This document shows positions 10,058 through 29,442 of a stretch of DNA of 38,449 nt, piece by piece. This stretch comes from Deltaproteobacteria bacterium (GTDB taxonomy: Bacteria > Desulfobacterota > UBA8473). The stretch spans positions 1 through 38,449 of the forward strand of contig QZJR01000016.1 in assembly GCA_003599365.1 (NCBI GenBank), in the 5' to 3' direction. The notes beneath the pieces are model-generated. The model was not told the DNA's origin. It worked only from the letters and a program-made list of their open reading frames with translations, and ran no database searches. Position numbers and translations under genes: made by a program. How positions within the stretch are numbered: the first letter of the stretch is position 1; each line of letters starts with the position of its first letter.

Positions 10058-10156
10058 AATATATCCAAAATCCTTTCGTATCTCATCGTATTACCCCGGT
10101 ACATTATGCCATCACTGAATCACCACCTACAGGGAAAAACTTAAATAAATTGCGTG

Positions 10157-10182
10157 TCATTGCGAACGAAGTGAAGCAATCT
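10157..10182. repeat. Solo half-copy of the inner arm of the 4467-4620 element
   Basis: 'tcattgcgaacgaagtgaagcaatct' versus 'tcattgcgagcgaagcgaagcaatct' (24/26). No partner arm nearby. Confidence 0.5.
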
Positions 10183-10200
10183 CTTGGGAACATTCTCAGG

Positions 10201-10239
10201 AACCTCCTGATTTCCTCTTTTAGAGAGTTGCATGATAAA
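10201..10239 (-). other. ~40-nt relic resembling the 3' end of the MFS gene at 12156-13427
   Basis: 'aacctcctgatttcctcttttagagagttgcatgataaa' versus 12168-12208 'aacttcctgattccctcttttagagagtcgcaggatataaa' (4 mismatches plus a 2-nt indel). Intergenic, with no intact ORF. Confidence 0.35.
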
Positions 10240-10279
10240 AAAATCAAAGGCACTTGGAAGGACAAGAAGAACATTTGTC

Positions 10280-11077
10280 CTACTTGCCCCGAAAGACAGG
10301 TTTCCTCTTCTCCTTGAATGCCTTCTGTCCCTCCTTCAAATCCTCACTACTAAAGCACCGGTTGATAAGCTCCTCAGCCATGGCTTCGTCTTCCGGGGTA
10401 GGCATTGGTGAACTTACAGATTTATTGATGAGTATCTTAGCTCCGCTTACAGATAATGGAGCATTCTCTATTATCTCCCTGGCCAGATCATAGGTCGCTG
10501 ACAGAAGATCATCCTCTGATACCACGTAATTAACAAGCCCCATTTCTTTCGCCTTGTGTGCATCAACCATCCTTCCTGTAAGAAATAGTTCTTTTGCATT
10601 TGCCTCACCTACCAGATTGACGAATCGCCTATGCCCGCTAAAGGAATAAAGAACACCCAGTTTTGCCGGTGGCATGCCAAACTTTGCTTTATCAGAAGCT
10701 ATCCTGAGATCACACGTTGCAGCAAGTTCACAACCTGCTCCAAGGGTAAAGCCATTTACCATGGCAATAACAGGGTATCTATATTCAGAAATCACCTCAA
10801 GCCCCCTCAGCAATGGATTTATCTTTTTTAATGCTTCCATATCTTCCGGACTAATTCCTTTGGGAATATCGAAAATACTGTATCCTGAAGAAAATGCCTC
10901 GTTTCCGGCTCCACGGACGACAACAACTCTGGTTTCTTGATCATCATTTAAGGATTCCATAACCCTAATAAACTGAATTAACAGAGGGGGGGATAATGAA
11001 TTTCGTTTCTCGGGGCGGTTAAATACAATAGTACATATACGATCCTGCTTCTCAACTATTATTAACTTATCATCCAT
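10280..11077 (-). CDS. Crotonase-fold protein (enoyl-CoA hydratase/isomerase family) retaining only the first catalytic Glu
   Basis: 'FNRPEKRNS' and '[29 protein letters not shown]'. The second Glu position is Pro. SD 'aggagg' precedes the ATG at 11077. Confidence 0.9.
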
Positions 11078-11309
11078 TTAGTCCTCCTGCATGACCGAGC
11101 AGCATATTTAATTCCACGAAGCTGCCCGGATCCAGAAGTTTATCAATCCGTTCTCGGGCCGTTAACTTACCGGCATTATGAACCTCTTCTATTTTGTCTG
11201 GTCCTCCGCCGAGTTTTGCCTTTTCCTTAACCTCTCTTAATTGCTGAATCCTACCCTTACCTTGTCCTCCCACAATCTCCTCCTTTTCCTTCACATCGTT
11301 CAACCCCAC
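11070..11309 (-). pseudogene. N-terminal relic (79 codons) of an acyl-CoA carboxylase carboxyltransferase (PccB/MmdA-like)
   Basis: '[45 protein letters not shown]' matches the conserved N-terminus of ~510-aa carboxyltransferases. The frame ends after ~79 codons inside the SD/start of the next crotonase. GTG start with no SD. Confidence 0.6.
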
Positions 11310-11354
11310 CCTGTAACAGGCCAGCTTGATCCCTTGAATCCTTTTAATATCTTC

Positions 11355-12131
11355 TTACCTGCCGGTAAAGGTCGGTTTTCGTTTTTCCAGCATAGCCATT
11401 ACGCCTTCTCCGGCATCCTCACTCTGATTCACTTCATCTGCCAGGGCTCTTAACTCAGATTCAATTTGAGGATCGATCCCATGGCGCTCCAGAAGTTTGT
11501 TAATAGTCAATTTGGTAGCCTTCATAGCCAGTGGAGCATTTTCTTCAGCCAACTCCTTTGCCATGGAATAGGTGGTCTTAATCAGTTGATCAGAAGAAAC
11601 CACCTGACTGACAAGCCCTATCTCCAGTGCCCGTTTCGCATCTACAAGTTTTCCTGCCAAGAGCAGCTCTTTTGCCGCCGCTATACCCACCAAACTGAGG
11701 AGTCGGTTAATTGCGGTATAATAATAAATCCTTCCAAGCTTAACCAGGGTCGCGCCAAATCTGGCCCCTTCCGACGCTATCCTGAAATCCGAGATAACAG
11801 ATATGTCCAGCCCGGCCCCGATGGCCGGCCCGGAGATCATGGCTATGATAGGAGATGGATAACTAATCAGGTTATTGAGACAGTGCTCCAATCCCTTTAT
11901 GGTCTTTTCAATGGATTCAGATCCGCCGGAAAGGTCTACCCCTGAAGAAAAGATATTGTCTCCTGCTCCCCTTATTACAACCACTCGAATATTATTATCC
12001 TCCTTTAAATCACTGAGAATATCTCCCATGCTAAATAGTGCGTCTGCATTTAAGGCATTCCTTTTCTCAGGTCTGTTGATGGAAAGGGTAGTAATATAAC
12101 CATCATCTTCCCTTAAAATTTCTTCTACCAT
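11355..12131 (-). CDS. Crotonase-fold protein lacking both canonical hydratase glutamates
   Basis: 'INRPEKRNAL' and 'GAGLDISVISDFRIASEGARFGATLVKLG' (Glu1 to Asp, Glu2 to Leu). SD 'aaggagg'. Confidence 0.9.
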   Translation of the reverse strand: MVEEILREDDGYITTLSINRPEKRNALNADALFSMGDILSDLKEDNNIRVVVIRGAGDNIFSSGVDLSGGSESIEKTIKGLEHCLNNLISYPSPIIAMISGPAIGAGLDISVISDFRIASEGARFGATLVKLGRIYYYTAINRLLSLVGIAAAKELLLAGKLVDAKRALEIGLVSQVVSSDQLIKTTYSMAKELAEENAPLAMKATKLTINKLLERHGIDPQIESELRALADEVNQSEDAGEGVMAMLEKRKPTFTGR

Positions 12132-12155
12132 ACTTCCTCCTTTGCTAATTCTGTT

Positions 12156-13427
12156 TTAACCCACATAAACTTCCTGATTCCCTCTTTTAGAGAGTCGCAG
12201 GATATAAAGAAAACCAACGGTGCTTAAAAGGGCAAGAACAGCAATTAATAGCCAACTCCAATAATAGCCAACGCTGTCAGCAATATACCCAAAGACAGGG
12301 GGGCCTATTATGATCCCTATCCACGCAATGGTTACGAGAATGCCCATGATTGATCCGGCCAGTTCCTTGCCTGCCAGCTCTGCGGCCAGGGTTATCAAAA
12401 CAGCGTTCCAACCTATAAAGGTACCTCCCATGAGAATTGACCAAAAGAAAGACAACCAGAGGGGAGAGCCTTTTGATAAGAAAGCCGTTCCAAGTGCACC
12501 GATGAAAGCGATAACCGATAAAATAACTATCGGTATCATTCTGTCTCCGGCAAATAACCGATCACTAATGATACCCCAACCGATCCTGCCCACTGACCCA
12601 GCTATCATTGCAGCAGTCAGACAACCTCCGGCAAGCCCCACTGAAAAGTTTAACTCCTCTTCCAGGTAAAGCACAAGGAACGAGGCAATACCGGTTTGCC
12701 CAAAGGCCATTAGCGGAGTTATAAGGCATAATATTAGAAGAACAGGATTTGACATTACCTTTAGCAGGGATCCCTCTTTTTGGCCTTTTTTCGATGTGGA
12801 TGCCACATTGGATGCCCCTTCAGCGGGGAGAACAGGACGCTCCTTATAAAATATCAGGGACAAAAAAGCCATAACAAGCATCAATATACCAATGACCAAA
12901 ACTCCCAACCTCCAGCTATATGCCACAGTCAGGGCAGGGAGTAAAACAGCAACGATAGCACCCCCTAGAGTAACCCCTGTCTGTTTTATACCCATCGCGG
13001 TGGCCCTGAACCTGGCAGAAAACCAGTACATAATACCTTTGGTCGAAATTTGATTTATCATTCCATAGCCCAGACCGCCAACTGCAGCAAAAACTATGAA
13101 AAACAGATAGTTTTTTGCCAACGCCATAATAGCAAAAGGTATCCCCATTATAATCAGACTGATAATGAGCATAATCCGAGCGCCCAACTTATCTACGGCT
13201 ATTCCGGAAGGTATGGCTATTATAACCGATGCGAAATACAGCACCGAGGTAATAGTTCCGATCTGGGCCCGGCTGAGGTTAAATTCATCTCTAAGAACCG
13301 GAGCCAGCGGACCCCATGTATAAGCACCCATGGACATAACCAACTGGGCCACAGTTAAAATGCCCAAGATTATCCACCCATAACTATTTTGATTCTCTTG
13401 AGTGATACTGGTATCAGGGTCTGTCAT
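12156..13427 (-). CDS. MFS transporter
   Basis: 12 predicted TM segments, ATG with SD 'aaggag'. Sits directly downstream of the tandem mutase genes. Confidence 0.85.
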   Translation of the reverse strand: MTDPDTSITQENQNSYGWIILGILTVAQLVMSMGAYTWGPLAPVLRDEFNLSRAQIGTITSVLYFASVIIAIPSGIAVDKLGARIMLIISLIIMGIPFAIMALAKNYLFFIVFAAVGGLGYGMINQISTKGIMYWFSARFRATAMGIKQTGVTLGGAIVAVLLPALTVAYSWRLGVLVIGILMLVMAFLSLIFYKERPVLPAEGASNVASTSKKGQKEGSLLKVMSNPVLLILCLITPLMAFGQTGIASFLVLYLEEELNFSVGLAGGCLTAAMIAGSVGRIGWGIISDRLFAGDRMIPIVILSVIAFIGALGTAFLSKGSPLWLSFFWSILMGGTFIGWNAVLITLAAELAGKELAGSIMGILVTIAWIGIIIGPPVFGYIADSVGYYWSWLLIAVLALLSTVGFLYILRLSKRGNQEVYVG

Positions 13428-13460: not shown

Positions 13461-15197
13461 CTAAACAAACGAATCCATCTGCCACTCACCAAATACGCCT
13501 CTCAAAACATCACACTGTTCTTGAAGGGTAGCGTATTCTCTTGCCAGATTAACAAAAAGAGGCATCAGGTTCTCATCGTCCTTTTTGGCAGCCCTTTCCA
13601 ACTCTCCAAGAAGCCTCGTTACTTCCCGGTTGTTCCTTGTACGTTTGACTTCAGCAAGGTTAGCCTTCTGCTTTTTCTCGGCATCATACCTCTTCTCTTC
13701 AGAATACGGATGCTCAACCATCTTGCTGGTGGTCACATCCAGCTCGTATTCCTCTGTGAAACAGTTCACTCCAACTATGATATCTTCTCTTTTCTCTATC
13801 CTGGACTGACGTTCAGCAGCGCTCTTTGCAATCGAGCGTTGCATATACCCGTTCTCAATAGCAGCCACAGATCCACCTATCCCCTCGACTTTTTCCAGTT
13901 CTTTCCATGCTGCTTCCTCTATTTCATTGGTCAATGACTCTACATAGTAAGACCCGGCCAGAGGATCTAAAACATCGCACATCCCTGTCTCATACATGAG
14001 AATCCTTGTTGCATCCTCTGCAAGCTGCCTTGCTTCCAAACTCCAACCCAATCCCAGCGGCTCATCATACGGCGGGAAGGCCAATGGCGGACCTCCCGAA
14101 AGAACACCGGCTACTGCGCCTATTACTGAGCGGGTAAGATTGTTCAGTGCCCGTTGTTTGGTGGTGGTACTGATACCACTATAGGCTGTGTATTGGCTTC
14201 GGATTCTCATGCTTTCGGATTTCTTTGCACCGAATCTTTCCTTGAGAATCTTAGCCCACATACGGCGAGACGCCCTATGGAAAGCGATCTCCTTGAAAAA
14301 CTCCATACTACCACCAAAACCTACAAAGGAAAACCTGGGGGCAAAGGCATCAATATTGAGTCCTGCATTTATCCCTTCCTGTAAATAAGCAATCCCGTTA
14401 GCCATAGTGAATGCCAATTCCTGCTCTCTTGTGGCTCCTCCCTCACGGATATGAGCACCGCCAAAGCCGTTTATATTCATCGCCGGAAGACTCTCCGTAA
14501 AGAAGACCAGACTGTCTCGAAACATACGCATGGAAGGCCTCGGAGGGAATATGTAGGTGCCGCGGGAAATAAACTCCTTTAGTATGTCATTCTGGGGGGT
14601 ACCCTTCAACTTTGCCAGTGATATACCCCTCTTCTCTGCAAGAGCCACATACATGGCAACCAGGATATTTGCAGGGGCATTTATCGTCATGTTTGTAGCG
14701 ATCTTGTCCAGATCCAGATTGCCTGTAAATGCCTCAAATATAACCTCAAAATCCCGCAAGGTGTCTACTGCCACACCCACCTTACCTATCTCTCCTTCAA
14801 CTATCTCATTATCCGAATCATAGCCGCACTGGGTAGGAAGATCTAACGCCAGGTTGGGCCCGCCTGTATACATTAATTTCGCCATTAATCTGTAGTAATC
14901 CCTGGTGTCTTCCGGGGTTCCATATCCGGAATATGTTCCTGCCCTTCTCAACCCCCCAGGCTTTGCACCTTTTTCAAGTCTTGGTACAAGATTTACCGGA
15001 TAAGAGGCTGCCGTCAATGGATATTGCCCAGGGAAACCCACATCCCGTAAGAAATCAAAGTCCGGTATGTCTAAAGGCGTATGGAATTCTGTCGGCCTTT
15101 TTTCTATACCAAACCTCTTGGCCGCAGGCAACAACGCCTTCTCCTCCCATTCCTCCTTCTTCTCTTTTATCTCAGCCAATTTATCTTTATTATCCAT
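13461..15197 (-). CDS. Acyl-CoA mutase large (catalytic, B12-dependent) subunit, divergent paralog 1 (578 aa, no fused B12 domain)
   Basis: MCM-family core: 'GTPQNDILKEFISRGTYIFPP', 'HIREGGATREQELAF', 'DPLAGSYYVESLT'. The N-terminal signature diverges ('FPGQYPLTAAS' in place of '..TRG'). Confidence 0.9.
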   Translation of the reverse strand: MDNKDKLAEIKEKKEEWEEKALLPAAKRFGIEKRPTEFHTPLDIPDFDFLRDVGFPGQYPLTAASYPVNLVPRLEKGAKPGGLRRAGTYSGYGTPEDTRDYYRLMAKLMYTGGPNLALDLPTQCGYDSDNEIVEGEIGKVGVAVDTLRDFEVIFEAFTGNLDLDKIATNMTINAPANILVAMYVALAEKRGISLAKLKGTPQNDILKEFISRGTYIFPPRPSMRMFRDSLVFFTESLPAMNINGFGGAHIREGGATREQELAFTMANGIAYLQEGINAGLNIDAFAPRFSFVGFGGSMEFFKEIAFHRASRRMWAKILKERFGAKKSESMRIRSQYTAYSGISTTTKQRALNNLTRSVIGAVAGVLSGGPPLAFPPYDEPLGLGWSLEARQLAEDATRILMYETGMCDVLDPLAGSYYVESLTNEIEEAAWKELEKVEGIGGSVAAIENGYMQRSIAKSAAERQSRIEKREDIIVGVNCFTEEYELDVTTSKMVEHPYSEEKRYDAEKKQKANLAEVKRTRNNREVTRLLGELERAAKKDDENLMPLFVNLAREYATLQEQCDVLRGVFGEWQMDSFV

Positions 15198-15252
15198 GAT
15201 AAGTCTACCTCCCTATCTCAGTTGATAAAACATGGTTGTCATTATTCTAAAC

Positions 15253-15380
15253 GTAACTATTCAGGCAGGCACAAAGGCACAGAGCACCAAAGGCACAAAG
15301 TAGGAAAAAACAATGAGACGACCCTGCTCCGCTCTGCTTTGTACCTATGTGCCTTTGCCACTTTGTGCCTGAGTAGTTAC
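15253..15380. mobile_element. 128-bp MITE with terminal inverted repeats and an 8-bp target-site duplication
   Basis: TIRs are 'gtaactattcaggcaggcacaaag' (left) and the reverse complement of the right end, 'gtaactactcaggcacaaag'. Flanking direct repeats are 'ttctaaac' (15245-15252) and 'ttctagac' (15381-15388). The paralogous empty site at 13451-13470 reads 'tgtcattattctaaacaaac'. Confidence 0.7.
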
Positions 15381-15382
15381 TT

Positions 15383-17119
15383 CTAGACAAACGTATCCAA
15401 CTGCCACTCACCAAACACACCTCTTAAAACATCGCATTGCTCTTGAAGGGTCGCATACTCCCTTGCCAGATTAATGAAAAGGGGCATCAGGTTCTCATCT
15501 TCCTTTTTAGCAGCACTCTCCAATTCTTTCAGAAGCCTCGTAACCTCCCGGTTATTCCTTGTCCGCTTCACCTCAGCCAGATTGGCCTTCTGCTTTTTCT
15601 CGGCATCATACCTCTTCTCTTCAGAATACGGATGCTCAATGATCTTACTGGTGGTTACATCGAGCTCATATTCCTCTGTAAAACAATTCACCCCTACAAT
15701 AAGTTCCTCTCTCCTCTCTATCCTGGCCTGACGCTCGGCAGCGCTCCTTGCACATTCGCGCTGCATATACCCGTTTTCTATTGCCGTCACGGCACCCCCT
15801 ATCCCTTCGATCTTCTCCAGCCCTTTCCACGCAGCATCCTCTATTTCGTTGGTCAATGATTCCACATAGTAAGACCCGGCCAGAGGGTCTATAACATCGC
15901 ACATCCCCGTCTCATACATGACAATCCTTGTGGCATCCTCGGCCAGTTGTCTCGCTTCTAAACTCCAGCCCAACCCCAGCGGTTCATCATATGGTGGAAA
16001 TGCCATTGGCGAACCTCCGGAGAGAACTCCAGCTATTGCCCCTACCACAGAACGGGAAAGGTTGTTCAGCGCCCGCTGCTTGGTGGTGCTGCTGCAACCA
16101 ATATGAGCTGAGAGAGGACACCGGATCCTCATACTATCCTGCTTCTTTGCACCGAACCTTTCTTTAAGAATCTTTGCCCACATACGGCGAGCTGCCCTCT
16201 GAAAGGCTACCTCCTTAAAAAGCTGCATGCTCCCCCCAAACCCATTGAAGGTAAACTTGGGGGCAAAGGCGTCAATATCGACCCCTGCATTCACACCCTC
16301 CTGCAAATAGGCAATCCCTATGGCCATACTAAAGGCCAGCTCCTGTTCCCGAGTAGCTCCCCCTTCACGAATATGATACCCACCGATACTGGTTATGTTT
16401 ACCCCTGGAAGATTCTCAGTAAAGAAGACCACGCTGTCTCGAAACATCCGCATAGAAGGTCTCGGAGGAAATATGTAGGTGCCCCTGGAAACAAACTCTT
16501 TTAGTATGTCATTCTGGGGTGTACACCTTAGTTTTGCCATGTTTATGCCCCTCTTTTCAGCCAGGGCTATGTACATGGCAACCAGGATATTTGCAGCGGC
16601 ACTGATGGTTATGTTCGTGGCTATCCTGTCCAGATCCTGCTCTCCTGTAAATGCCTCATAAATAACCTCAAAATCCCGCAAGGTATCTATCGCGACCCCC
16701 ACCTTGCCTACTTCCCCTTCGACCGTCTCATTATCCGAATCATAACCGCACTGGGTAGGGAGATCTAATGCCAGGTTGGGACCGCCTGTATACATTATCT
16801 TCGCCATCTGCTTATAGTAATCCCTGGTATCTTCCGGAGTGCCATAGCCGGAATATGTCCCTGCCCTTTTCAACCCCCCAGGCTTTGCACCCTTTTCAAT
16901 CCGAGGCACAAGACTTATTGGATAAGCTGATGGGGTAAACGGATATTGCCCCGGAAAACCAACATCACGCTCAAAGTCAAAATCCGCTATATCCAAAGGC
17001 GTATAGAATTCCGTCGGACTTTTCTCTATACCGAACCTCTTGGCTGAGGGCATCAATACCTTCTCTTCCCATTCCTTCCTCTTCTCTTTTATCTCACTCA
17101 ATTTATCTTTATTATCCAT
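15383..17119 (-). CDS. Acyl-CoA mutase large subunit, divergent paralog 2 (578 aa), tandem duplicate of 13461-15197
   Basis: Collinear with paralog 1 with no indels (constant 1922-nt offset), roughly 80-85% aa identity by eye. 'CTPQNDILKEFVSRGTYIFPP' and 'GGYHIREGGAT'. Confidence 0.9.
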   Translation of the reverse strand: MDNKDKLSEIKEKRKEWEEKVLMPSAKRFGIEKSPTEFYTPLDIADFDFERDVGFPGQYPFTPSAYPISLVPRIEKGAKPGGLKRAGTYSGYGTPEDTRDYYKQMAKIMYTGGPNLALDLPTQCGYDSDNETVEGEVGKVGVAIDTLRDFEVIYEAFTGEQDLDRIATNITISAAANILVAMYIALAEKRGINMAKLRCTPQNDILKEFVSRGTYIFPPRPSMRMFRDSVVFFTENLPGVNITSIGGYHIREGGATREQELAFSMAIGIAYLQEGVNAGVDIDAFAPKFTFNGFGGSMQLFKEVAFQRAARRMWAKILKERFGAKKQDSMRIRCPLSAHIGCSSTTKQRALNNLSRSVVGAIAGVLSGGSPMAFPPYDEPLGLGWSLEARQLAEDATRIVMYETGMCDVIDPLAGSYYVESLTNEIEDAAWKGLEKIEGIGGAVTAIENGYMQRECARSAAERQARIERREELIVGVNCFTEEYELDVTTSKIIEHPYSEEKRYDAEKKQKANLAEVKRTRNNREVTRLLKELESAAKKEDENLMPLFINLAREYATLQEQCDVLRGVFGEWQLDTFV

Positions 17120-17167
17120 GATACCTTTACCTCCCCCTAAACCTGAAATATTTCCAGCCAGAACTTT

Positions 17168-17575
17168 TCAGGCTATTTTACGTACGTTTTTCCTTATAAA
17201 GTCCCCAATATCCTTTATCAGAGTACCAGGACCAAAGATTTCTGTGACACCTTTCTCTTTGAGTATTGGGATATGCTCGTCAGGTATAATGCCACCACCT
17301 ATAACCAACATATCTCCAGCGTCATTTTCCCTCAAAAGATTCACAACCTTGGGGAAGAATGTCAGATGGGCTCCGGATAGGATGCTAAGCCCCACAACAT
17401 CCACATCCTCTTGCAGTGCTGAGTTTACAATCTGTTCGGCTGACTGTCTCCTTCCGGTATAGATTACTTCCATACCCTGGTCTCTCAGCCCGAAGGAGAG
17501 AACCTTTGCGCCTCTATCATGTCCGTCAAGCCCGGGCTTTGCTATTAATACCTTTATCTTTCTTTCTTTTTCCAT
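17168..17575 (-). CDS. Stand-alone B12-binding (cobalamin) small subunit of an acyl-CoA mutase
   Basis: '[18 protein letters not shown]' (DxHxxG), 'GLSILSG' (SxL), 'IGGGIIP' (GG). ATG at 17575 has SD 'aaggagg'. The track's TTG at 17614 would overlap the upstream gene. Confidence 0.9.
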
Positions 17576-17588
17576 AAAAAACACCTCC

Positions 17589-19544
17589 TTAATCATAGAT
17601 AGTCTGACATTCAAGTATCTCCACCGGTACCTCGGTTTCTCTTTCTATCTCCATATATACCCTTCCTGTCAGGTCCCTTCCCCACCCACTTAGATTGAAG
17701 GGCGAAGATGGGATTACGACCAAATCCGGTTTTACATCCGTTGATTTAATATAATCTTTTATATAGTTAATATAATCCTGGACTACTAATAAATCCCCCA
17801 TACAGATATTACCCCCAAAAAATCGGTTTGGAGGAACAGCAACCTTTATATCAATGTTCCTTCCTCTAAAGAAAGGGGATTCCAGCATGACCTTTTCCAG
17901 CAATGGCTTAATAAGGATTGACGTAAGGAAGAGGATGTTTTTGGCACCTTTCTTTTCGATAAGGTATTCTAATGACTCCAGGTAACCTCCCCGAAGACCT
18001 GTGCCCATAAATATTATCCCGAGATGGGTGTCGATATCCCTCGAATATGGGTATGAAGTCTTGTTTAAATTGAGTAAGAGATCCAATGTACAACCCTTCC
18101 TCAAGACCTCTATTGCCACAGATTCCATCTCATTCTTTTGTAAAATGGAGAGGAGGGTTCGGGCCTGAGGTCTATTGTGGATCACATTGCTCCCTATCTT
18201 CGTCAATATATCGCCTCTTCGCAAACCACTGTTAGCCACCGGAGAGCCTTTCACTATTCCGATAATTTCCGGCAGGTTCTTCCGGTTACAGAACAGCCCC
18301 TCTTCATACATAGCAGGCCTGATTACTATGGGAATCCCGTATTTACTCCTTATATCCCTTACCTTCCTGGCAATCGCCTCCCAGATGGAATCATGGTCGA
18401 ACAGATCATCTTCTGAAAAGTACTTAGAGTACCCCGGTAAGCTGATTTCTGCGAGATGGGCGTCATTTTCATCAGCATACTCAATCGTTCTCTCCATGTC
18501 ATCCAGCATCTCCTCCGGAGATCCGTCAGGCCATGGCACAATGACTGTGTTGTAAGGAATACCGGCTTTCCTGAGTAAAGGCAGAGATTTGATAGCTATC
18601 TCCGGGGTTTTGTCATGCATTAACCTCTGCCTCCTATGAGTTGAAGAACTATGCAGGGCAACATCCAGGTGCAATGGATTAAACCCCAAAAGGTAATCAA
18701 TCATCTCCTCTGTCAGAGTCGAACCATTTGTAGTTATTCTTATAAGTTTATCGCTCTTCTTCCGAACTTCCTGTAGTACCTCTCTGAAATGGGGATGAAT
18801 GAATGCCTCAAAGCTGCTCCCCAGACTTGTGAATAAGTTCTTCTTTTTTTCAGGATAAAAGTATTTCAGGCGGGTCTGTACCTCTTTGAACTCTTCGTCA
18901 GGAGACTTAGAAGGGTTCGTAAGTGCCAGAGATGGGGGACATCCTTTGTTATAACAAAAAACACAGTTGCAGTTGCATCTTGTTGCCAGATATCCCAACA
19001 TATCAGCGGGATCACAGGAAGACTCTTCAACCCATTGGGACAAGTCTTTAAGCCTGAAGGCATCGACTTTCACTGTCTTTCCATGACTTTCCAGCTCCAC
19101 CAAATCCAACAAACTCTGTAGTAGTCGTTGAATATACTCGACAGTCGGTTCATAAAGGGAGGTATTTCTTATAGATTGGAAACCGCACCCCCATGCGTCC
19201 CCATTTTCTTCTTCGAGAGATTTGCCGTTGTCTCCGTCCGGATATCTGATGGTTTCCGTTGGCATAAGGTTTCCCCGGCGTTCGCTATCCGATTCGACAG
19301 GGCACCCTTCATCCCCATCGAATACCCTGTGTATACGACTCCTGTCGTTCATCAATTTGAATCCGTCAATCCTTACCTCAGAATCTCCGTTACAGGGGAT
19401 TGCTATATCGAGGATATTCCTCAAATGCATTCTCAAAAGATCTAATCGAGAGGCACAGCGCTTATCCTCTCTATTGGTGCCATCAGACATTTTATATCGA
19501 AAGACATAATCATTGTCTGAAGATGCTGTTTCTTCCCTTTTCAT
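17589..19544 (-). CDS. Radical SAM protein with an internal PDZ-like domain, a DUF512-like C-terminus and an unassigned ~175-190-aa N-terminal region
   Basis: 'CNCNCVFC' is CxxxCxxC. The PDZ-like stretch is '[21 protein letters not shown]'. The C-terminus '[28 protein letters not shown]' resembles DUF512. ATG at 19544 has SD 'aggag', whereas the GTG at 19595 has none. Confidence 0.8.
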
Positions 19545-19602
19545 TTTGACTCCTGAATTCTGTCTCCTGTCTCCTGAACAGTTAGAAATCACCACGATTA
19601 TT

Positions 19603-20820
19603 TTACAGCTTCTCTTTTACATGTTTTGCCAATTCTTTAGCATGCTCCTCTGTTTCTTTTTGTATAGACCTTATCTTTTCATCGGAATACCCAAGAAGAC
19701 TTTTCAATACCTCTTCAGTATGTTGACCAAGGGTTGGCGGCGGCTCGTGGCTACCATCCATTCTATCCCTGATGCGTATAGGAGTTGCAATAGCCCTGAT
19801 CGGCCCGCAGACCGGATGATCCATATGAATAACGGTCTCATTATAAATCACCTGAGGGTCTTTCTCTACCTTGTCCAGTGTGTTTATAGGTCCGCCAATT
19901 ATGTCATGCTCTTTAAACAGATCCAACCATTCTTCTGTGTCCTTCTCCATGAGGGCCTCTTCCATGATACTTTCCAATTCATTCTTAGACTTCAGTCTTT
20001 TTTCCATTGTGTCAAACCTTGGATCGTTTAGAAGCCAGCTTCTACCGAGCACATGGGCAATATCCGGCCATGAGAGACCTAAGGTTACATATCCATTCCG
20101 GGTCTGAAACACCCCGATAGGAGCAGCAGGATGCCTTTTTCCTTGAGGTTTCGGTGGCTTGCCGGAGAGAAAGTACATCTGAAAGTGGTTGGACATAAGT
20201 GACATAGTAGATTCTAAAAGGTTCACATCTACTCTCACTCCTTTGCCTGTCTTCTGCCTTTCGTAGAGGGCTGCAACGACACCCATAGCGCCGAAAAAAC
20301 CTCCTGAAAGATCCGCAATTGCAATACCAGGACGAAGTGGACCGCTATCAGGATCCCCTACAAGGCTTAATGAGCCTGCCATCCCTTGAACAATATCATC
20401 AATAGCGGGTTTATCCTTATATGGCCCTGCTGTACCATATCCGGTAATAGAACAAGAGATAATTTTAGGATTCGTCTTCTTCAAGGTTTCAAAATCAACT
20501 CCCAATCTTTCAATGACACCGGCTCTAAAATTGTCAAACACTACATCGGATATTTTGACCAGGTCATAGAATGCCTCTTTACCGGATTCAGTATACATAT
20601 CCAGCGTAATGCTCTTCTTGTTTCGATTGAGAGCCAGGGTATAATAGCTCTCACCCTTTAAGCTCGGATTAATCCCCCTCACGATATCCCCCCTGCCTGG
20701 AGGCTCTATCTTTAATACCTCTGCTCCCAGGTCACCCAAAAGCTGAGACCCATATGGTCCTGCATGGGCATGTGATAGGTCCAGAACTCTAATACCGGTT
20801 AGTGGTCCCCTAATTGCCAT
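19603..20820 (-). CDS. Family III CoA-transferase (CaiB/BaiF/Frc-like)
   Basis: 'GIRVLDLSHAHAGPYGSQLLGDLGAEVLKIEPP' N-terminal signature, 405 aa, SD 'gggggagg'. Confidence 0.9.
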   Translation of the reverse strand: MAIRGPLTGIRVLDLSHAHAGPYGSQLLGDLGAEVLKIEPPGRGDIVRGINPSLKGESYYTLALNRNKKSITLDMYTESGKEAFYDLVKISDVVFDNFRAGVIERLGVDFETLKKTNPKIISCSITGYGTAGPYKDKPAIDDIVQGMAGSLSLVGDPDSGPLRPGIAIADLSGGFFGAMGVVAALYERQKTGKGVRVDVNLLESTMSLMSNHFQMYFLSGKPPKPQGKRHPAAPIGVFQTRNGYVTLGLSWPDIAHVLGRSWLLNDPRFDTMEKRLKSKNELESIMEEALMEKDTEEWLDLFKEHDIIGGPINTLDKVEKDPQVIYNETVIHMDHPVCGPIRAIATPIRIRDRMDGSHEPPPTLGQHTEEVLKSLLGYSDEKIRSIQKETEEHAKELAKHVKEKL

Positions 20821-20836: not shown

Positions 20837-21631
20837 CTATCTTCCTTTGAAAATTGGCTCACGTTTCTCCATAAACGCCTTCATGCCCTCAACTCGATCC
20901 TCAGTATTCCAGCATACCCCAATGGTCATCACTTCGTAATCAACGGCTTGTGATATGTCCATATTATAAAAATTCTGGAGACCTCTCTTTGCCAGGGCTA
21001 TTGGTATCGGGGCATTCTTTGCCATTTTCTGGGCCAGTTCTTTTGTTGCGTGAATGAGATTATCGTGGGGCACCACTTTATTGACCATGCCAATTCTAAG
21101 CGCCTCTTCAGCATCTATTATGTCTCCTGTAAAAATCAATTCTGCCGCCTTGGCATAGCCAACCAGCCTCGGCAAAAACCAGATACCTCCCCAATCAGGA
21201 TGTACCCCTCGTTTCACAAATGCCTGAGAAAATCTGGCACGCTCACTCGCAATACGGATGTCACACGATAGGGCAAGGTTGCACCCACCGCCCGCGGCCG
21301 CCCCATTTACAGCGGCAATGACCGGCTTCTCAATAGAATTGATTAACAGGACAATCTTGCTCATGGCAGGCCGTTCACTGGTAGCGATATTTGAAAGGGC
21401 CTTTGTAGTTCCAGAAACAAATTCATCTATATCGCCCCCTACGCAAAACGCCTTTCCTGCCCCTGTAATCACTATCACACGTACATCGCCATCAGAGCAG
21501 GCGAGTTCAAGGGCTGCCAATATCTCCTGTCGCATATTGCCGCCCAGGGCGTTGTATTTTTCAGGCCGATTTAAGGTAATTGTGCCGATACCATCCTCTT
21601 TTTCAAACAATACAAATTCCCATTCCATCAT
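20837..21631 (-). CDS. Crotonase-fold protein lacking both canonical hydratase glutamates
   Basis: 'LNRPEKYNAL' and 'GGGCNLALSCDIRIASERARFSQAFVKRG' (Glu1 to Asn, Glu2 to Phe). ATG at 21631 sits 5 nt after SD 'aggagg'. The track's TTG at 21649 is unlikely. Confidence 0.9.
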   Translation of the reverse strand: MMEWEFVLFEKEDGIGTITLNRPEKYNALGGNMRQEILAALELACSDGDVRVIVITGAGKAFCVGGDIDEFVSGTTKALSNIATSERPAMSKIVLLINSIEKPVIAAVNGAAAGGGCNLALSCDIRIASERARFSQAFVKRGVHPDWGGIWFLPRLVGYAKAAELIFTGDIIDAEEALRIGMVNKVVPHDNLIHATKELAQKMAKNAPIPIALAKRGLQNFYNMDISQAVDYEVMTIGVCWNTEDRVEGMKAFMEKREPIFKGR

Positions 21632-21678
21632 CTCTTCCTCCTGTATCAAAGTAGATCGTCTTGAAAAATGAAAATAGG

Positions 21679-22620
21679 TTATGACTCAAAGTCTCCAGCC
21701 AGCTCCAAAGACAGCCTATTGGCCCCTTCAACCATCCGCTTAATAAGTTCCTCGATAGTGGTAATCTCCTTTGTCAATCCTGCAATTTGCCCCGCAGGCA
21801 TAAGCATATAATCCGGATCGTTTTTATGCTCACTGCCCAGTTTGTCCACAAAGGCGTTGATTTCCTCTTGGTTGGCACCTTTTTCCTCCATTTCACGAAT
21901 CGCCATAACAGCCTTATTCTTCAAAGCTCTGAGAGGGAAACCCTTTCTAGCCGCAATCATTGTACTATTGTCCCTGGCAGCTAGAATTGCCTGTTTATAT
22001 ACCTCAGGGACAGGGCACTCCTCTGTGACAAGGAAACGGGTGCCCATCTGTATCCCCTCAGCGCCAAGGGCGTGTACCGCCACCCAACCCCGTGCATCTC
22101 CTATACCACCTGCTGCAACCACCGGTATCCTGACCGCGTCTACTACCTGGGGAATGAGTGTCAGTGTACTCACTTCATCTCGACCCACATGGCCGCCTGC
22201 CTCTGTCCCTACGGCAATAACGCCATCTACCCCTGCATCCTCTGCCTTCTTCGCCATCTCTACTGTAGGGGCCATGTGCAACACCTTAATCCCTGCCTCT
22301 TTAATCCTCTTTATGAGTTTACCTGCATCACCGGCCGAGGTAGTGATCGTCTTTATCCCTTCTTCAATAGCTATCTCCAGTGCCTCAAAGGCATTGGGTC
22401 TGTAGACAGGAATATTTATACCGAGGGGGTTGTCGGTCAATTCACGGGCATTCCTGATCTGTTTTCTCAAAGGTTCTGCCTTCATCCCTGAGGCAGCTAT
22501 TAAACCAAAACCCCCTGCATTGGACATGGCTGCCGCCATTTTCGCAAGGGTAATAAAACGCATTGCCCCTAAGATAATCGGATATTGAGAACCAAGTATC
22601 TCGGTAATCCTGTTTTTCAT
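21679..22620 (-). CDS. NMO/2-nitropropane-dioxygenase-family FMN oxidoreductase (FabK-like enoyl reductase fold)
   Basis: 'YPIILGAM', 'GVDGVIAVGTEAGGH', 'IPVVAAGGIGD', 'GAEGIQMGTRF'. Confidence 0.85.
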   Translation of the reverse strand: MKNRITEILGSQYPIILGAMRFITLAKMAAAMSNAGGFGLIAASGMKAEPLRKQIRNARELTDNPLGINIPVYRPNAFEALEIAIEEGIKTITTSAGDAGKLIKRIKEAGIKVLHMAPTVEMAKKAEDAGVDGVIAVGTEAGGHVGRDEVSTLTLIPQVVDAVRIPVVAAGGIGDARGWVAVHALGAEGIQMGTRFLVTEECPVPEVYKQAILAARDNSTMIAARKGFPLRALKNKAVMAIREMEEKGANQEEINAFVDKLGSEHKNDPDYMLMPAGQIAGLTKEITTIEELIKRMVEGANRLSLELAGDFES

Positions 22621-22654
22621 AGAGACTCCTTTTCAATGGTATTTGTAACTCGTG

Positions 22655-23449
22655 CTATCTCCCTTTCCAGGTAGGTGGCCTCTTCTCCGTGAAGGCTTTA
22701 AAACCCTCCATTACGTCCTCAGTGCGCATCAGGCTATGAGTTACATGGTCTGTTAGAGACATGGCATCAGGACGGCTCATATCCTCGCCTCTCCTAATCA
22801 GCTCTTTTACTGCCCTTATTGCGAGAGGACTATTTTGACAGATACTCTCCGCCATCTCCGTTGCCGTAGGGAGAAGTTGCTCAGCGGAAACTATCCGGGT
22901 CACCAGTCCCACCTCGTAGGCCCTCTGAGCGCTGATTTTATCTGTGGTAAGGAGCATTTCATGGGCAACCCCTCGGGGGATATAGCGCTGGAGAAGCGCA
23001 GTAAAGGTTGCCGGCATGCCCAACCTCGGCTCCGGTACCCCAAATTGAGCGCTCTCAACGGCAATCCTTATGTCGCTTTCCAACGCCAGCCACAAGCCTC
23101 CACCAAGACAATACCCGTTGATGGCCGCAATAATGGGTTTCGAGACATCATATCTTGCAGGAGATGCACGCCAAACAGGCGCCTCTTTCTCCCAAGAAAT
23201 CACCCTTGACGGAGGATTGCCCTTCATCGCCTCCAACATCTCCACGTCCGATGCGATATCAACCCCGGCGCAAAATGCCTTCCCAGCGCCAGTGAGAACA
23301 CCCACCCACACGTCATCATCGTCCCTGAAATTCACCCAGGTCTTCGCTAACTCATTGACAAGCTCAGGATTTAGGGCATTTAACTTTTCAGGACGATTCA
23401 TGGTAATATAAGCGATTTTATCCTTCTTCTCATAGATGACTAACGACAT
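22655..23449 (-). CDS. Crotonase-fold protein retaining only the second catalytic Glu
   Basis: 'MNRPEKLNAL' and 'GGGLWLALESDIRIAVESAQFGVPEPRLG' (Glu1 to Trp). Confidence 0.9.
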   Translation of the reverse strand: MSLVIYEKKDKIAYITMNRPEKLNALNPELVNELAKTWVNFRDDDDVWVGVLTGAGKAFCAGVDIASDVEMLEAMKGNPPSRVISWEKEAPVWRASPARYDVSKPIIAAINGYCLGGGLWLALESDIRIAVESAQFGVPEPRLGMPATFTALLQRYIPRGVAHEMLLTTDKISAQRAYEVGLVTRIVSAEQLLPTATEMAESICQNSPLAIRAVKELIRRGEDMSRPDAMSLTDHVTHSLMRTEDVMEGFKAFTEKRPPTWKGR

Positions 23450-23468
23450 AAATAACCTCCTTTTGGTA

Positions 23469-23915
23469 CTAGCCCTTTAAAGCAAACATTACATCACAGC
23501 ATTCATCGCCGGCTGCCACCGTCTTCAAGATAGAGAGGTCAATTTCTTCCCCTGTAGCCGCTTCAAAGATCCCTATATCCATATTCATCATGGCCTCACA
23601 TAACGGACGACCGGCACCGGCCAAGCCTAATGCACACCGTTCGTTTTTGCATCTAAGCCTTTTTTCTGTGAGTTCGAGTAGTGTTACCGGACTTTTACGC
23701 CGTTTAGCGCCTTCCAAAAAGGCGCTGCCAACACTCTTGAGGTCAAAGGAATCCAAATTTGTTCTCATCTGGTTTCCAATAGCCCTTCCCAACCTGCGGC
23801 ACACCTCCCCTATAAGAGGCAGAACCTCATCACCATACTTTTTATAAATCATACGGCTTAACAATGCCAGTGCATCCCTTGCAGTATTTACCTCAACTTC
23901 TTGCAATGAATTCAT
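23469..23915 (-). CDS. Small Cys-rich protein, possibly ATC-hydrolase-like (PF14196-type) fold
   Basis: The C-terminal pattern 'RCKNERCALG..PLCEAMMNMDIGIFEA..AAGDECCDVMF' resembles that family's C..C / LC..D / G..CDF signature as I remember it. The family assignment is tentative. Confidence 0.55.
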   Translation of the reverse strand: MNSLQEVEVNTARDALALLSRMIYKKYGDEVLPLIGEVCRRLGRAIGNQMRTNLDSFDLKSVGSAFLEGAKRRKSPVTLLELTEKRLRCKNERCALGLAGAGRPLCEAMMNMDIGIFEAATGEEIDLSILKTVAAGDECCDVMFALKG

Positions 23916-24017
23916 AATACCCCCTGTTAAAGTATAAGAAACAATTGCCCACTAGAACCCCATTTAAAAGGTCACTGAGAAAGAAAAACCCCATGGTTAC
24001 CATGACGATTTTTTGAT

Positions 24018-24422
24018 TTACAGACCTGCATGTTGTACTGTTTCATTTATACATCTGATGATACTTTGAAGACGGGATCCAGGCCCGAATATTTCCACGA
24101 CTCCCATTTCTCTTAATTTAGGTTTTTCTTTGGGTGTGATGATCCCTCCCACCAAGATAGGAATATTATCGCCTCCTTGTTCACTCAAGGCTGACTTTAC
24201 TTTCGAAAAAAGCGTTACTGCTCCACCTGCATGAATGCTCAGTCCGATAATATCCGCTCCTTCTTCGACTGCCGCCTGAGCGATTTCATTTGGGGTCAAA
24301 TCGACTCCTAGATAAACAACTTCCATCCCTGCATCCATCAAGGCTTTTGCCAAAACGTTTATCCCTCTCAGGTGACCATCTAAGCCAGGTTTTGCCAAAA
24401 GAATCCTGATATTTTTTTTCAT
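24018..24422 (-). CDS. Stand-alone B12-binding small subunit of an acyl-CoA mutase
   Basis: '[18 protein letters not shown]' (DxHxxG), 'GLSIHAGG', 'LVGGIITP'. Lies directly downstream of the 553-aa large subunit. Confidence 0.9.
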   Translation of the reverse strand: MKKNIRILLAKPGLDGHLRGINVLAKALMDAGMEVVYLGVDLTPNEIAQAAVEEGADIIGLSIHAGGAVTLFSKVKSALSEQGGDNIPILVGGIITPKEKPKLREMGVVEIFGPGSRLQSIIRCINETVQHAGL

Positions 24423-24470
24423 ACGTCATCCTTTATCAAATAATCTACAAAACTTCTCCGGTTATCATAA

Positions 24471-26330: not shown

Positions 26331-27896
26331 CTATTCCGGCTCGCCAAATATTTCCCTTTCTCTTTTCTTCAACTCGACCTTCTTGACCTTGCCACTCGTG
26401 GTCATGGGAAACTCCTTCAAGAATTCCAGACTTGTGGGATACTTATATTTGGCCACTTTACCCTCCAGATACTCGTGTATCTCCTCTAGAGTAATGGTTT
26501 CCCCTTCCTTCAATACAATAAAGGCCTTCCCGGTCTCGCCCCATTTTTTATCAGGCACACCGATAATCGCTGCATTGGCGATCTTGGGATGGTCAGCCAG
26601 AACCTTCTCTGTTTCAGCAGGATACACATTTTCACCCCCACTGCGATACATATCCTTGGCCCGATCTACGATATAAAAATAACCTTCCTCATCCGTATAA
26701 CCCAGGTCGCCGGTGTCAAGCACCTCGTTTACAAGCACCTTTGCAGTTTCCTCCGGCATATTCCAATAGCCGCTCATCCTGGTAGGTCCCTTGCATACAA
26801 TGCGGCCGACTTGACCTGGGGGAAGTTTGTTCCATTCATCGTCCGCTATCCAGACCTCGGTGCAGAATCCTGGCAACCCGATAGAGCCCTTCTTCCTTTC
26901 CACATCTTCTTTGGGCAGCATCATCATCGCCGAGTTTTCAGTCTGACCAAACCCCTGCTGCAAAAAAAGCCCCTTTTGCGCCAGTTCATCAAGCAAACCG
27001 AGGGGGGTTCTTTCCCCTCCTCCGAATGTAATTCGAACATTACTTGTGTCGACTTCATTGAGCCGTCCTGTCTGGAGTACAAACCTCCACATTGTAGTAA
27101 GAGAAAAGACGACAGTGGCTCTGTATCTTTCAATGTCTTCCGCATACTTTACCGGATCAAAGTCCTGCCTCAAAATCATTGTTGCGCCTCTCCAAAGAAC
27201 AGGCGTGGCAGTGACAAAAATACCTCCGGAATGAAACAGAGGCAACTGCGCCAGGATTATATCATCTGACCTCATGTCCATGTACATCATGATCTGAATG
27301 TTTTTAAAATAGGTCTGCAGGTGAGAGACAAGGGCTCCTTTAGGGGCTCCCATTGTCCCTGATGTATATATAATGGCCAGAGGATCATCCATATCAACAG
27401 GCTTATCAGGCTGTGGCTCATCAACAGGGTATTTCTCGATCACTTCATGGTAGTCCGCCGCCCATTCAGGACAGCTTAGAGCCTCTTCTTGAGCGCTTCT
27501 CTTTACAAAAATGAATTTATCCTTTTCAACCTTTATCCTGGAGCGAATGGAACCGGTCATCTCTGTAAACTTGTCATGAAACATAAAGACACTAGCGCTA
27601 CAGTTGTTAAGCTGATACTCTACCTCAGGCCCAACCATACGGAAATTCAGCGGGACAAAAATAAGCCCGAGCTTGGCAGCGGCAAAGTATATCTCAATAA
27701 ATTCCGGGCAGTTTAAGAGCATCACCGAAATTCTGTCACCCTTTTTGACCCCCATTTCTTTCAGAAGATTGGCAACACGGTTGGCGTTATCGTTAATCTC
27801 CTTATAAGTAACCGGTCTATCCTCATAAATCAAAGCCGGTTTGTTTGGTGTCAATAAGGCTCTTTTTGCAGCAATACGGCCTATGTCCCATTCCAT
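26331..27896 (-). CDS. AMP-forming acyl-CoA synthetase/ligase (ANL superfamily)
   Basis: 'IIYTSGTMGAPKG', 'GYWNMPEETAK', 'DTGDLGYTDEEGYFYIVDRAKD', 'SGKVKK'. Confidence 0.92.
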   Translation of the reverse strand: MEWDIGRIAAKRALLTPNKPALIYEDRPVTYKEINDNANRVANLLKEMGVKKGDRISVMLLNCPEFIEIYFAAAKLGLIFVPLNFRMVGPEVEYQLNNCSASVFMFHDKFTEMTGSIRSRIKVEKDKFIFVKRSAQEEALSCPEWAADYHEVIEKYPVDEPQPDKPVDMDDPLAIIYTSGTMGAPKGALVSHLQTYFKNIQIMMYMDMRSDDIILAQLPLFHSGGIFVTATPVLWRGATMILRQDFDPVKYAEDIERYRATVVFSLTTMWRFVLQTGRLNEVDTSNVRITFGGGERTPLGLLDELAQKGLFLQQGFGQTENSAMMMLPKEDVERKKGSIGLPGFCTEVWIADDEWNKLPPGQVGRIVCKGPTRMSGYWNMPEETAKVLVNEVLDTGDLGYTDEEGYFYIVDRAKDMYRSGGENVYPAETEKVLADHPKIANAAIIGVPDKKWGETGKAFIVLKEGETITLEEIHEYLEGKVAKYKYPTSLEFLKEFPMTTSGKVKKVELKKREREIFGEPE

Positions 27897-29401: not shown

Positions 29402-29442
29402 CTTTTCACCCTCCATAAAGTAGAAGTATTGTTAAAAGCCGC

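Follow-up and report, generated by a model that had tools for sequence, protein, structure and literature searches.

A tandem pair of divergent adenosylcobalamin-dependent mutase large subunits in a Deltaproteobacteria contig, with a probable role in the rearrangement of substituted succinyl-CoA

Introduction

Which acyl-CoA thioester is rearranged by an adenosylcobalamin-dependent mutase in which several signature motifs of methylmalonyl-CoA mutase (MCM) have been replaced and the carboxylate-binding Arg has been kept? This question is raised by two adjacent genes on contig QZJR01000016.1 of assembly GCA_003599365.1 (Deltaproteobacteria bacterium; GTDB lineage Bacteria; Desulfobacterota; UBA8473), of which positions 1 to 38,449 of the forward strand, a stretch of 38,449 nucleotides referred to below as the window, were analysed. 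The two genes, here called paralogs A and B, are adjoined by a single gene for a small subunit:

13461..15197, (-): paralog A, mutase large (substrate-binding TIM-barrel) subunit, 578 amino acids, ATG start (open reading frame list, profile matches)
15383..17119, (-): paralog B, mutase large subunit, 578 amino acids, ATG start, pocket residues typical of the family (open reading frame list, profile matches)
17168..17614, (-): small B12-binding subunit with the DxHxxG motif (LDGHDRG; PF02310, E 5e-22; TIGR00640, 157 bits against a cut-off of 57)

Paralogs A and B are isoforms of one and the same component of an adenosylcobalamin-dependent acyl-CoA mutase, its large subunit, which binds the substrate. 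With a probability that we put at roughly 0.6, the pair and the small subunit catalyse a 1,2-shift of the CoA-thioester group in a 2-substituted succinyl-CoA, for which (1-methylalkyl)succinyl-CoA is the best candidate. A rearrangement of the carbon skeleton of (1-methylalkyl)succinyl-CoA has figured in the anaerobic alkane pathway since 2002, according to the work of Wilkes et al. as cited in PMC8360864, and the accepted route leads from (1-methylalkyl)succinate through its CoA ester to (2-methylalkyl)malonyl-CoA, followed by decarboxylation and beta-oxidation (PMC7701123). The rearrangement has been assigned to a "putative Mcm" (PMC5606693, PMC6776118, PMC7701123), and our literature search found no biochemically characterised alkylsuccinyl-CoA mutase, the enzyme appearing only as a "putative methylmalonyl-CoA mutase".

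Family assignment and age of the mutase pair

Both proteins match PF01642 with E values of ~1e-137 (457 bits against a cut-off of 22) and exceed the cut-off of TIGR00641 (479-489 bits; cut-off 304). Neither reaches the canonical MCM equivalog NF006944 (A 417 and B 405 bits; cut-off 876) or the IcmF model NF045497 (154-168 bits against 1500), and within NCBIfam no named enzyme family takes in A or B, nor is any Ecm-named model among the matches. An AlphaFold2 model of B (predicted local distance difference test score 71.8, predicted template-modelling score 0.76) retrieved HcmA, the 2-hydroxyisobutyryl-CoA mutase, as the best structural match in Foldseek at a template-modelling score of 0.76, with MCM at 0.69-0.76 and IcmF structures at 0.66-0.70 and 24% identity; the model and this search confirm the fold, and what is said below of the pocket is drawn from sequence.

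The paralogs are 84% identical in protein over their full length, without gaps, and 81% identical in DNA. Identity at third codon positions varies between ~0.4 and 0.9 along the gene and lies mostly near 0.6, and the duplication is therefore not recent. The gene at 17168-17614 is the sole small-subunit gene adjoining the pair; its true start is probably an internal ATG (MEKERKIK...), giving a product of ~135 amino acids as in the gene model of the closely related metagenome contig L084.

Active-site residues and replaced motifs

An earlier note on this DNA, made from the letters alone, had held that both proteins lose the N-terminal family signatures, keep the Arg that binds the substrate carboxylate in MCM and hence act on a dicarboxyl-CoA, succinyl-CoA-like substrate in a remodelled pocket. 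The Arg proves to be where it was predicted. In the phmmer alignment to 1req_A (Propionibacterium shermanii MutB), which is ungapped over the block from TPQNDILKEFISRGTYIFPP onward, Gln202 and Arg212 of the paralogs pair with SEQRES residues 196 and 206, that is, with Gln197 and Arg207 of MCM, since the Tyr of QYAGF is SEQRES residue 88 and adding 1 to a SEQRES index yields the number used in the literature. Human MMUT (2xij), likewise aligned without gaps, concurs (vsRg against mvRn at the Arg207 position), and the segment QNDILKEF(I/V)SRGTYIFPP, with Arg at +10 from Gln, is present in both paralogs. The two alignments yield the following equivalences:

Paralog Tyr89: MCM Tyr89
Paralog Gln202: MCM Gln197
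Paralog Arg212: MCM Arg207
Paralog His249: MCM His244

The Tyr243 position (paralog residue 248) is Tyr in B (GGYH) and Ala in A (GGAH), so that, of the five residues whose mapping had been proposed, four are kept in both proteins and Tyr243 in B only. The Gln that the earlier note expected at the Arg207 position of hydroxyisobutyryl-CoA mutase is indeed found in HcmA (maQk).

The quoted replacement strings likewise occur in the translations. PFTRG lacks its Arg in both proteins, reading PLTAAS in A and PFTPSA in B, and HTNSxDEA has become AFPPYDEP in both, with loss of Asn366 and retention of Glu370. The strings given for the Tyr89 segment are present as well, namely VPRLEKGAKPGG followed by LRRAGTYSGYGT in A and VPRIEKGAKPGGLKRAGTYSGYGT in B; the accompanying insertion, put at ~8 residues, comes to a net +9 relative to human MMUT and varies in length across the family. 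To this picture we add the retention of Tyr89 and His244, the Ala of paralog A at Tyr243 and the replacement of RxHxQTSG (His328/Gln330), which reads RCPLSAHIG in B and RSQYTAYSG in A and is longer by 2 residues. Paralog A departs from the family norm in further places (GFGGAH, RFSFV, RIRSQYTAYSG), with family-conserved Asn292, Pro335 and Phe61 replaced by Val, Gln and Leu.

In a sample of 116 full-length homologs with 63-94% identity to the paralogs, Tyr89, Gln202, Arg212 and His249 are each kept in 116/116, and the Tyr243 position is occupied by Tyr in 103, Phe in 5, Ala in 4, Val in 3 and another residue in 1. The replaced motifs are themselves conserved in these homologs as PP(Y/F)DEP, GGSME and R-x-P-x-x-A-(H/Y)-x-G. 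The motif and residue traits are thus family-wide and none is special to this window; a physical remodelling of the pocket is what the motif replacements would suggest.

The mutase clade and its relatives

A protein search returned at least 8000 relatives of the paralogs. Among the best 120 of these, the full-length ones measure 557-589 amino acids (mostly 575-585), and the names given by their sources are confined to methylmalonyl-CoA mutase, qualified as family protein, N-terminal domain/subunit or large subunit. Among species-representative genomes, a scan located members in Desulfatibacillum alkenivorans DSM 16219, Smithella sp. SCADC and Peptococcaceae bacterium SCADC1_2_3, and further in metagenome-assembled genomes (MAGs) of Desulfatibacillaceae and of a tar biofilm, in Syntrophorhabdus, in Dehalococcoidia and in other Chloroflexota. 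A tree of 88 large subunits, built by neighbour joining with 100 bootstrap replicates, the kind of placement that the earlier note had called for, sets the family apart from both MCM and HcmA:

All 56 family sequences, separated from human and P. shermanii MCM, HcmA, the other two mutases of the window and a clade of ~40% identity: 100/100
Classic synthase-operon clade (D. alkenivorans, Smithella, others): 100/100
Classic clade plus the group holding the window paralogs: 97/100
Paralogs A and B as sisters: 95/100

Within the family, members linked to alkylsuccinate synthase lie on either side of the internal split (L049 and others on one side; L010, L012 and L051 on the other), and D. alkenivorans (L049), Smithella sp. 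SCADC (L014, L020) and the window paralogs have a motif signature in common, composed of PFT(A/G/S), the variable insertion, TPQNDILKE..RGTYI, GG(Y)H, FTFNxFGGS, R-x-P..AH-IG and (F/Y)PP(Y/F/W)DEP. In L036 a canonical MCM-like gene (RQYAGFST, HTNSLDEA) adjoins two family members, and this side-by-side occurrence argues for distinct functions.

Close relatives of the locus are two groundwater metagenome contigs, L084 and L085, which share 92-97% DNA identity with the window over most of 6361-27450, falling to 89-90% over paralog B and the radical SAM gene described below. A third contig, L129, is closer still; one of its proteins is annotated as coming from a Desulfobacteria bacterium, which places the window in that class. 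L084 and L085 both carry the tandem mutase pair. The L084 orthologs are 96.0% (A) and 93.6% (B) identical in protein, and that of A retains the A-type pocket differences (GFGGAH, RFSFV, RIRSxYTAYSG); the persistence of both the pair and these differences in a relative indicates that the two copies are maintained by selection.

The separate clade of ~40% identity to the paralogs (L053-L083) has features of its own. Most members keep Tyr89, Arg207 and His244, and in most a Gly-rich run (e.g. MIAGGGGGGLT) stands in place of RxHxQTSG and xxALCS(Y/F)DEA(Y/F) (e.g. MALCSYDEAY) in place of HTNSxDEA; members of the L068-L082 subgroup carry Ala at the Tyr243 position (AGAHFRD) and the alternative replacements FGCVCGGASLY and MFTAAWDEPF. 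Genes for GntR, acyl-CoA dehydrogenase, CoA-transferase III and TRAP proteins surround these mutases, a setting that recalls the iaa (phenylsuccinyl-CoA) system.

Linkage to alkylsuccinate synthase in relatives

The open reading frames of each locus were labelled by BLASTP against annotated reference proteins, and neighbours were counted in 52 family loci (L001-L052, comprising the genome scan and L001-L004) and in the 31 loci of the ~40%-identity clade, with flanks limited to 8-10 kb and with MAG contigs that are fragmented:

Alkylsuccinate-synthase-like alpha subunit or its activase: family 13/52, other clade 0/31
PrpD-like gene: family 25/52, other clade 0/31

In D. alkenivorans DSM 16219 the genes follow one another in the order sigma54 regulator, B12 subunit, mutase, MeaB, PrpD/MmgE-like protein, glycyl-radical activase and an 834-residue glycyl radical enzyme of the pyruvate formate-lyase (PFL)-like type. 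A Desulfobacteraceae MAG (L012) combines the gene order of the window with a synthase, running through synthase, mutase, radical SAM/PDZ protein, B12 subunit, CoA-transferase III, hydratase, carboxyltransferase, CoA ligase, NMO-type protein and hydratase; the glycyl radical enzyme of this MAG reaches 1273 bits with MasD (9o8u), the 1-methylalkylsuccinate synthase of solved structure, and 480 with benzylsuccinate synthase. Mutase, radical SAM/PDZ protein and synthase occur together in three lineages, represented by L010 (Actinobacteria), by L012 and by L102, a metagenome contig with the gene order of the L002/Peptococcaceae type. It is this shared clade, taken with the invariance of Tyr89, Arg207 and His244, that supports the succinyl-like substrate which the earlier note had proposed.

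Other genes of the cluster

The genes around the mutase pair, all on the minus strand, are as follows:

10280-11077, (-): ECH4, crotonase-fold protein (methylmalonyl-CoA decarboxylase model NF008506)
11355-12131, (-): ECH3, crotonase-fold protein (methylmalonyl-CoA decarboxylase model NF008506)
12156-13427, (-): MFS transporter, which with ECH3 and ECH4 forms the cluster part 10280..13427
17589..19595, (-): radical SAM protein of 668 amino acids with a CxxxCxxC motif and a PDZ domain (profile matches)
19603..20820, (-): family III CoA-transferase (PF02515, E 1e-116)
20837..23915, (-): four-gene block of ECH1 (enoyl-CoA hydratase), a FabK/NMO-type FMN enoyl reductase, ECH2 (enoyl-CoA hydratase) and a 148-residue protein
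26331..27896, (-): AMP-forming acyl-CoA ligase
28028..29416, (-): MmgE/PrpD-family protein, one of the commonest genes beside mutases of the clade, about as common as B12-subunit genes

The top NCBIfam matches of the CoA-transferase are succinate-glutarate and formyl-CoA transferases, all below cut-off, and such a gene adjoins the mutase also in L008, L011, L012 and many metagenome loci. It is a candidate activator of a substituted succinate at the expense of a CoA donor or, alternatively, an epimerase resembling alpha-methylacyl-CoA racemase. The ligase, ~60% identical to mutase-adjacent ligases in Smithella sp. SCADC, L012, L021 and L032, matches the CoA-synthetase/ligase role given to assK (PMC6776118). 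The block at 20837-23915 recurs with a mutase or radical SAM gene, the same pair being found in L003, L012, L021, L052 and L084 as well as in L104, L105, L145-L148 and L161-L164.

The MmgE/PrpD family includes an epimerase, and the PrpD-like protein is for this reason a candidate for the postulated alkylsuccinate epimerase/isomerase; its D. alkenivorans counterpart (L049 12649-14109) lies inside the synthase operon, between MeaB and the activase. An epimerase is still postulated by the field (PMC13450708).

ECH3 and ECH4 are candidate alkylmalonyl-CoA decarboxylases, matching NF008506 at 150 and 186 bits, which is below its cut-off of 257. In the 94%-identical L084 the slot of ECH4 (window 10037-11373) is taken by a biotin-type carboxyltransferase gene (16263-17828), which suggests that a crotonase-type enzyme and a carboxyltransferase are two interchangeable means of removing the malonyl carboxyl group.

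The cluster is bounded by a GAF/MshEN/T2SSE ATPase gene (window 6258-8564, (-)) that is conserved in L084, and the genes of the upstream segment 1-6187, which encode a 3-hydroxyacyl-CoA dehydrogenase, an isochorismatase, an M48 peptidase, an amidohydrolase and a LysE transporter, are unrelated to it. An Rfam scan of the window returned neither a cobalamin riboswitch nor any other family. Two contigs of Smithella sp. SCADC (L014 3983-4709; L020 3875-4601) hold a stretch of 745 bp that is 94% identical to window 23174-23918, taking in the 148-residue protein and the last part of ECH2; a mutase of only 58% protein identity immediately precedes this stretch, which represents a mosaic or transferred segment or else a chimera of the assembly.

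Proposed reaction

In the reaction that we favour, (1-methylalkyl)succinyl-CoA, the activated form of the adduct of an alkane and fumarate, would be converted to (2-methylalkyl)malonyl-CoA. By analogy with MCM, Arg212 would bind the free carboxylate, Tyr89 and His249 would act as Tyr89 and His244 do in MCM, and Glu379, at the Glu370 position, would hold the ribose of the adenosyl group. The same analogy would place the alkyl branch on the carbon that loses the thioester group (the "methyl" carbon-to-be), next to the adenosyl group, where the exchange of polar MCM motifs for small or hydrophobic residues (Pro, Ala, Phe) may provide hydrophobic room for it; in MCM the replaced segments carry His328, Gln330 and Asn366, residues lining the cavity around the adenosyl group and the substrate. 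The CoA-transferase (19603-20820) and the CoA ligase (26331-27896) would activate the acid, and the product would be decarboxylated by a crotonase-type enzyme in the window, or by a carboxyltransferase in relatives, before beta-oxidation. The two isoforms together probably widen or split the substrate range.

Weighing of the explanations

A number of observations weigh against an assignment to alkylsuccinyl-CoA. No gene for a PFL-like/glycyl radical enzyme or its activase is found in the 38-kb window or on the L084 and L129 contigs, and the window holds MFS and TRAP transporter genes with a GntR regulator, which would fit the uptake of a free dicarboxylate that is not necessarily an alkylsuccinate. 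The group containing the window paralogs is only 53-58% identical to the classic synthase-operon mutases, and its recovery as one subclade has a bootstrap of only 46/100. The predicted model of B is of low confidence at the N-terminal arm 56-91, at 119-140 and at 475-498. The pair is most likely the "putative Mcm" of the fumarate-addition alkane pathway, an identity whose substrate has been deduced for the clade as a whole, and the succinyl-CoA may bear an alkyl, short alkyl, cycloalkyl or aryl group. We regard it as possible, if distinctly less probable, that the same chemistry serves another substituted succinyl-CoA, such as methyl- or ethylsuccinyl-CoA (compare ethylmalonyl-CoA mutase), cycloalkylsuccinyl-CoA or arylsuccinyl-CoA (compare IaaGH), taken up as the free dicarboxylate, so that the cluster would scavenge acids and have no part in alkane activation. 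Two MFS genes, a DctM gene and the GntR regulator accompany the pair in the window, many family loci (e.g. L003, L007, L008) have TRAP transporters and no synthase within 10 kb, the carboxylate-binding residues alone do not specify the substituent, and the iaa pathway joins a CoA-transferase III, a mutase and a decarboxylating step in the catabolism of an arylsuccinate (PMC8360864). Against uptake, however, stand the loci L010, L012 and L102, in which the same module is accompanied by a MasD-type synthase, and the ~60% identity of the window ligase to the ligases of synthase-linked loci; the absence of a synthase is itself weak evidence because of the short flanks and fragmented contigs.

That the pair might be an ordinary MCM of propionate or odd-chain metabolism, its divergence being without functional meaning, is unlikely. 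The retention of Tyr89, Gln197, Arg207 and His244 and the source annotation "methylmalonyl-CoA mutase family protein" would agree with it, and the alkane pathway also needs an MCM for the regeneration of fumarate from propionate (PMC7701123), but the paralogs score less than half of the MCM equivalog cut-off, and RxHxQT, HTNSxDEA and PFTRG, conserved in the aligned MCM and HcmA sequences, are replaced in every family member. The separate clade (100/100), the coexistence with an MCM-like gene in L036 and the linkage to PrpD-like, synthase and radical SAM/PDZ genes, specific to this family and not seen in the other mutase clade, speak against it as well. It is no more probable, and perhaps slightly less so, that paralog A has a structural role beside B and no catalytic one, in the manner of MutA beside MutB: the departures of A at Tyr243 (Ala), Asn292 (Val), Pro335 (Gln) and Phe61 (Leu) and the single small-subunit gene for two large-subunit genes could be so explained, yet A keeps Tyr89, Gln202, Arg212, His249 and the Glu of DEP, is 84% identical to B from end to end, and has a 96% identical ortholog with the same pocket residues, which fits selection on a working site. 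MutA-type chains, moreover, match only residues ~240-480, at E 2e-18 compared with 3e-84 for MutB. The rearrangement of a 2-substituted, probably alkyl-substituted, succinyl-CoA therefore remains our preferred reading for both isoforms.

The radical SAM/PDZ neighbour

The radical SAM/PDZ gene occurs in L002, L003, L005, L008, L010-L012, L050, L084, L086 and L088-L167. A metagenome scan for its homologs, from which 80 loci were kept, placed a family mutase in 19 of the 26 loci with at least 4 kb on each flank; a crotonase gene usually lies just upstream, the B12-subunit and mutase genes lie just downstream, and three loci with both radical SAM/PDZ and mutase genes also contain an alkylsuccinate synthase. 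Residues 582-659 of the protein weakly match a Pyrococcus furiosus DUF512 protein (9cg2_A, E 0.004), DUF512 having recently been shown to bind cobalamin in radical SAM enzymes that have no assigned function (PMC11659888). The domain order differs from that of the solved Clostridium sporogenes protein, being radical SAM, PDZ and C-terminal domain here and PDZ, radical SAM and cobalamin domain there.

We tentatively suggest, as a doubtful idea, that this protein is a dedicated partner of the mutase clade and that the two form an undescribed two-cobalamin-enzyme module of anaerobic hydrocarbon catabolism. Its role might be the post-translational modification of the mutase or of another pathway protein, the servicing of the cobalamin cofactor of the mutase in lineages that often have no MeaB, or a still-unknown radical step on the alkylsuccinyl intermediate, and in such a module the Tyr and Ala isoforms might handle different branch sizes or diastereomers. 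Two ideas were rejected. The mutase C-termini (TFV, SFV) do not stand out as PDZ ligands, hydrophobic tails being found throughout the family and the 40% clade with or without a radical SAM neighbour, and a plain replacement of MeaB is contradicted by L002, L011, L100, L102 and L108, which carry both genes.

Other mutase pairs in the window

Two further mutase gene pairs are encoded in the window:

24018-26132, (-): second mutase pair, a small subunit of 134 and a large subunit of 553 amino acids, the latter HcmA-like (477 bits to 4r3u)
34592-36753, (-): third mutase pair, with a large subunit of 556 amino acids

At the Tyr89 position, occupied by Ile in HcmA, the large subunit of the second pair has Val, and its Arg207/Gln position falls in an unusual block rich in Cys and Asn, QNDCINNSHSCNWF. 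This pair is 99% identical in L129 and wholly absent from L084, which is otherwise 94-97% identical, and it therefore represents an insertion/deletion polymorphism. In the large subunit of the third pair, Arg-Asn stands where MCM has Tyr243-His244 and Val where it has Tyr89, and the protein is shorter around the Arg207 block and in the GxNxAFDLPT region; judged from these differences, it may have no catalytic role or may use a quite different substrate.

Comparison with known systems

The value of the locus lies in what it offers for the study of this clade. The kept Tyr, Gln, Arg and His together with the replaced PFTRG, RxHxQT and HTNS motifs provide a marker that separates the clade from housekeeping MCM in metagenomes; the same positions are specific targets for mutagenesis, and the tandem isoforms are a natural pair, differing at the Tyr243 position, that is useful for comparison. 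The PrpD-like and radical SAM/PDZ proteins that travel with the mutase are candidates for unassigned steps such as the proposed epimerisation, and the radical SAM/PDZ association is the most novel lead at the locus.

Among the solved structures, the best match is HcmA (4r3u; E 3e-103 to 6e-106, 37% identity in Foldseek), with which the pair shares the separation of large and small subunits. HcmA differs in having Ile at Tyr89 and Gln at the Arg212 position, and therefore binds a non-carboxylated acyl-CoA, and in keeping RFHCQT and HTNGYDEA; the paralogs have Tyr and Arg in place of these specificity residues. Isobutyryl-CoA mutase, IcmF and pivalyl-CoA mutase have Phe at Tyr89 and Gln at the Arg207 position, and the Tyr and Arg of the paralogs, like their score far below the IcmF cut-off, place them outside this group too. 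MCM itself (P. shermanii MutB, human MMUT; 1req, 4req, 2xij) has the same fold at 32-35% identity, a nearly identical QNDILKEF..R..TYI(F/Y)PP block, and equivalents of Tyr89, Gln197, Arg207, His244 and Glu370 with the DE(A/P) motif. It differs in that the large and B12-binding parts of our pair are separate polypeptides and in the family-wide changes of PFTRG to PFT(A/P/G), of HTNSxDEA to x-F-P-P-Y-D-E-P and of RxHxQTSG to R-x-P-x-x-A-(H/Y)-x-G.

The E. coli sbm-ygfD-ygfG-ygfH operon, with its mutase, crotonase-fold acylmalonyl-CoA decarboxylase and CoA-transferase, follows the same module logic. ECH3 and ECH4 match the YgfG-type model NF008506 below its cut-off; the mutase belongs to another clade and the CoA-transferase to another class, and the window has no MeaB/YgfD gene. 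Ecm is a fused single polypeptide, whereas the pair described here is split. Ecm/MeaA and IaaGH of Aromatoleum have in common a substituted succinyl- or malonyl-CoA as substrate. IaaGH, a phenylsuccinyl-CoA/benzylmalonyl-CoA mutase, is combined with a CoA-transferase of family III and a decarboxylating step (PMC8360864), an arrangement that parallels the one proposed here.

The closest known system is the "putative Mcm/McmLS" of the ass/mas operons of D. alkenivorans and Smithella, which belongs to the same clade (97-100/100), has the same motif signature, is accompanied by a small B12 subunit, a PrpD-like protein, a CoA ligase and a carboxyltransferase or crotonase, and has been proposed to catalyse the same reaction (PMC5606693, PMC6776118, PMC7701123). 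The alternative raised in the earlier note, that the proteins fall in an already characterised subfamily, accordingly holds for the naming of the clade in these genome papers and not for its biochemistry, of which our search found no characterisation. The window differs from the classic arrangement in lacking synthase, activase and MeaB genes, in its tandem isoforms, one with Ala at Tyr243, and in a radical SAM/PDZ gene that adjoins the B12-subunit gene and is absent from the classic operons. The clade is already known from genome papers; the traits of the window are the absence of MeaB, the tandem Tyr/Ala isoforms and the radical SAM/PDZ neighbour.

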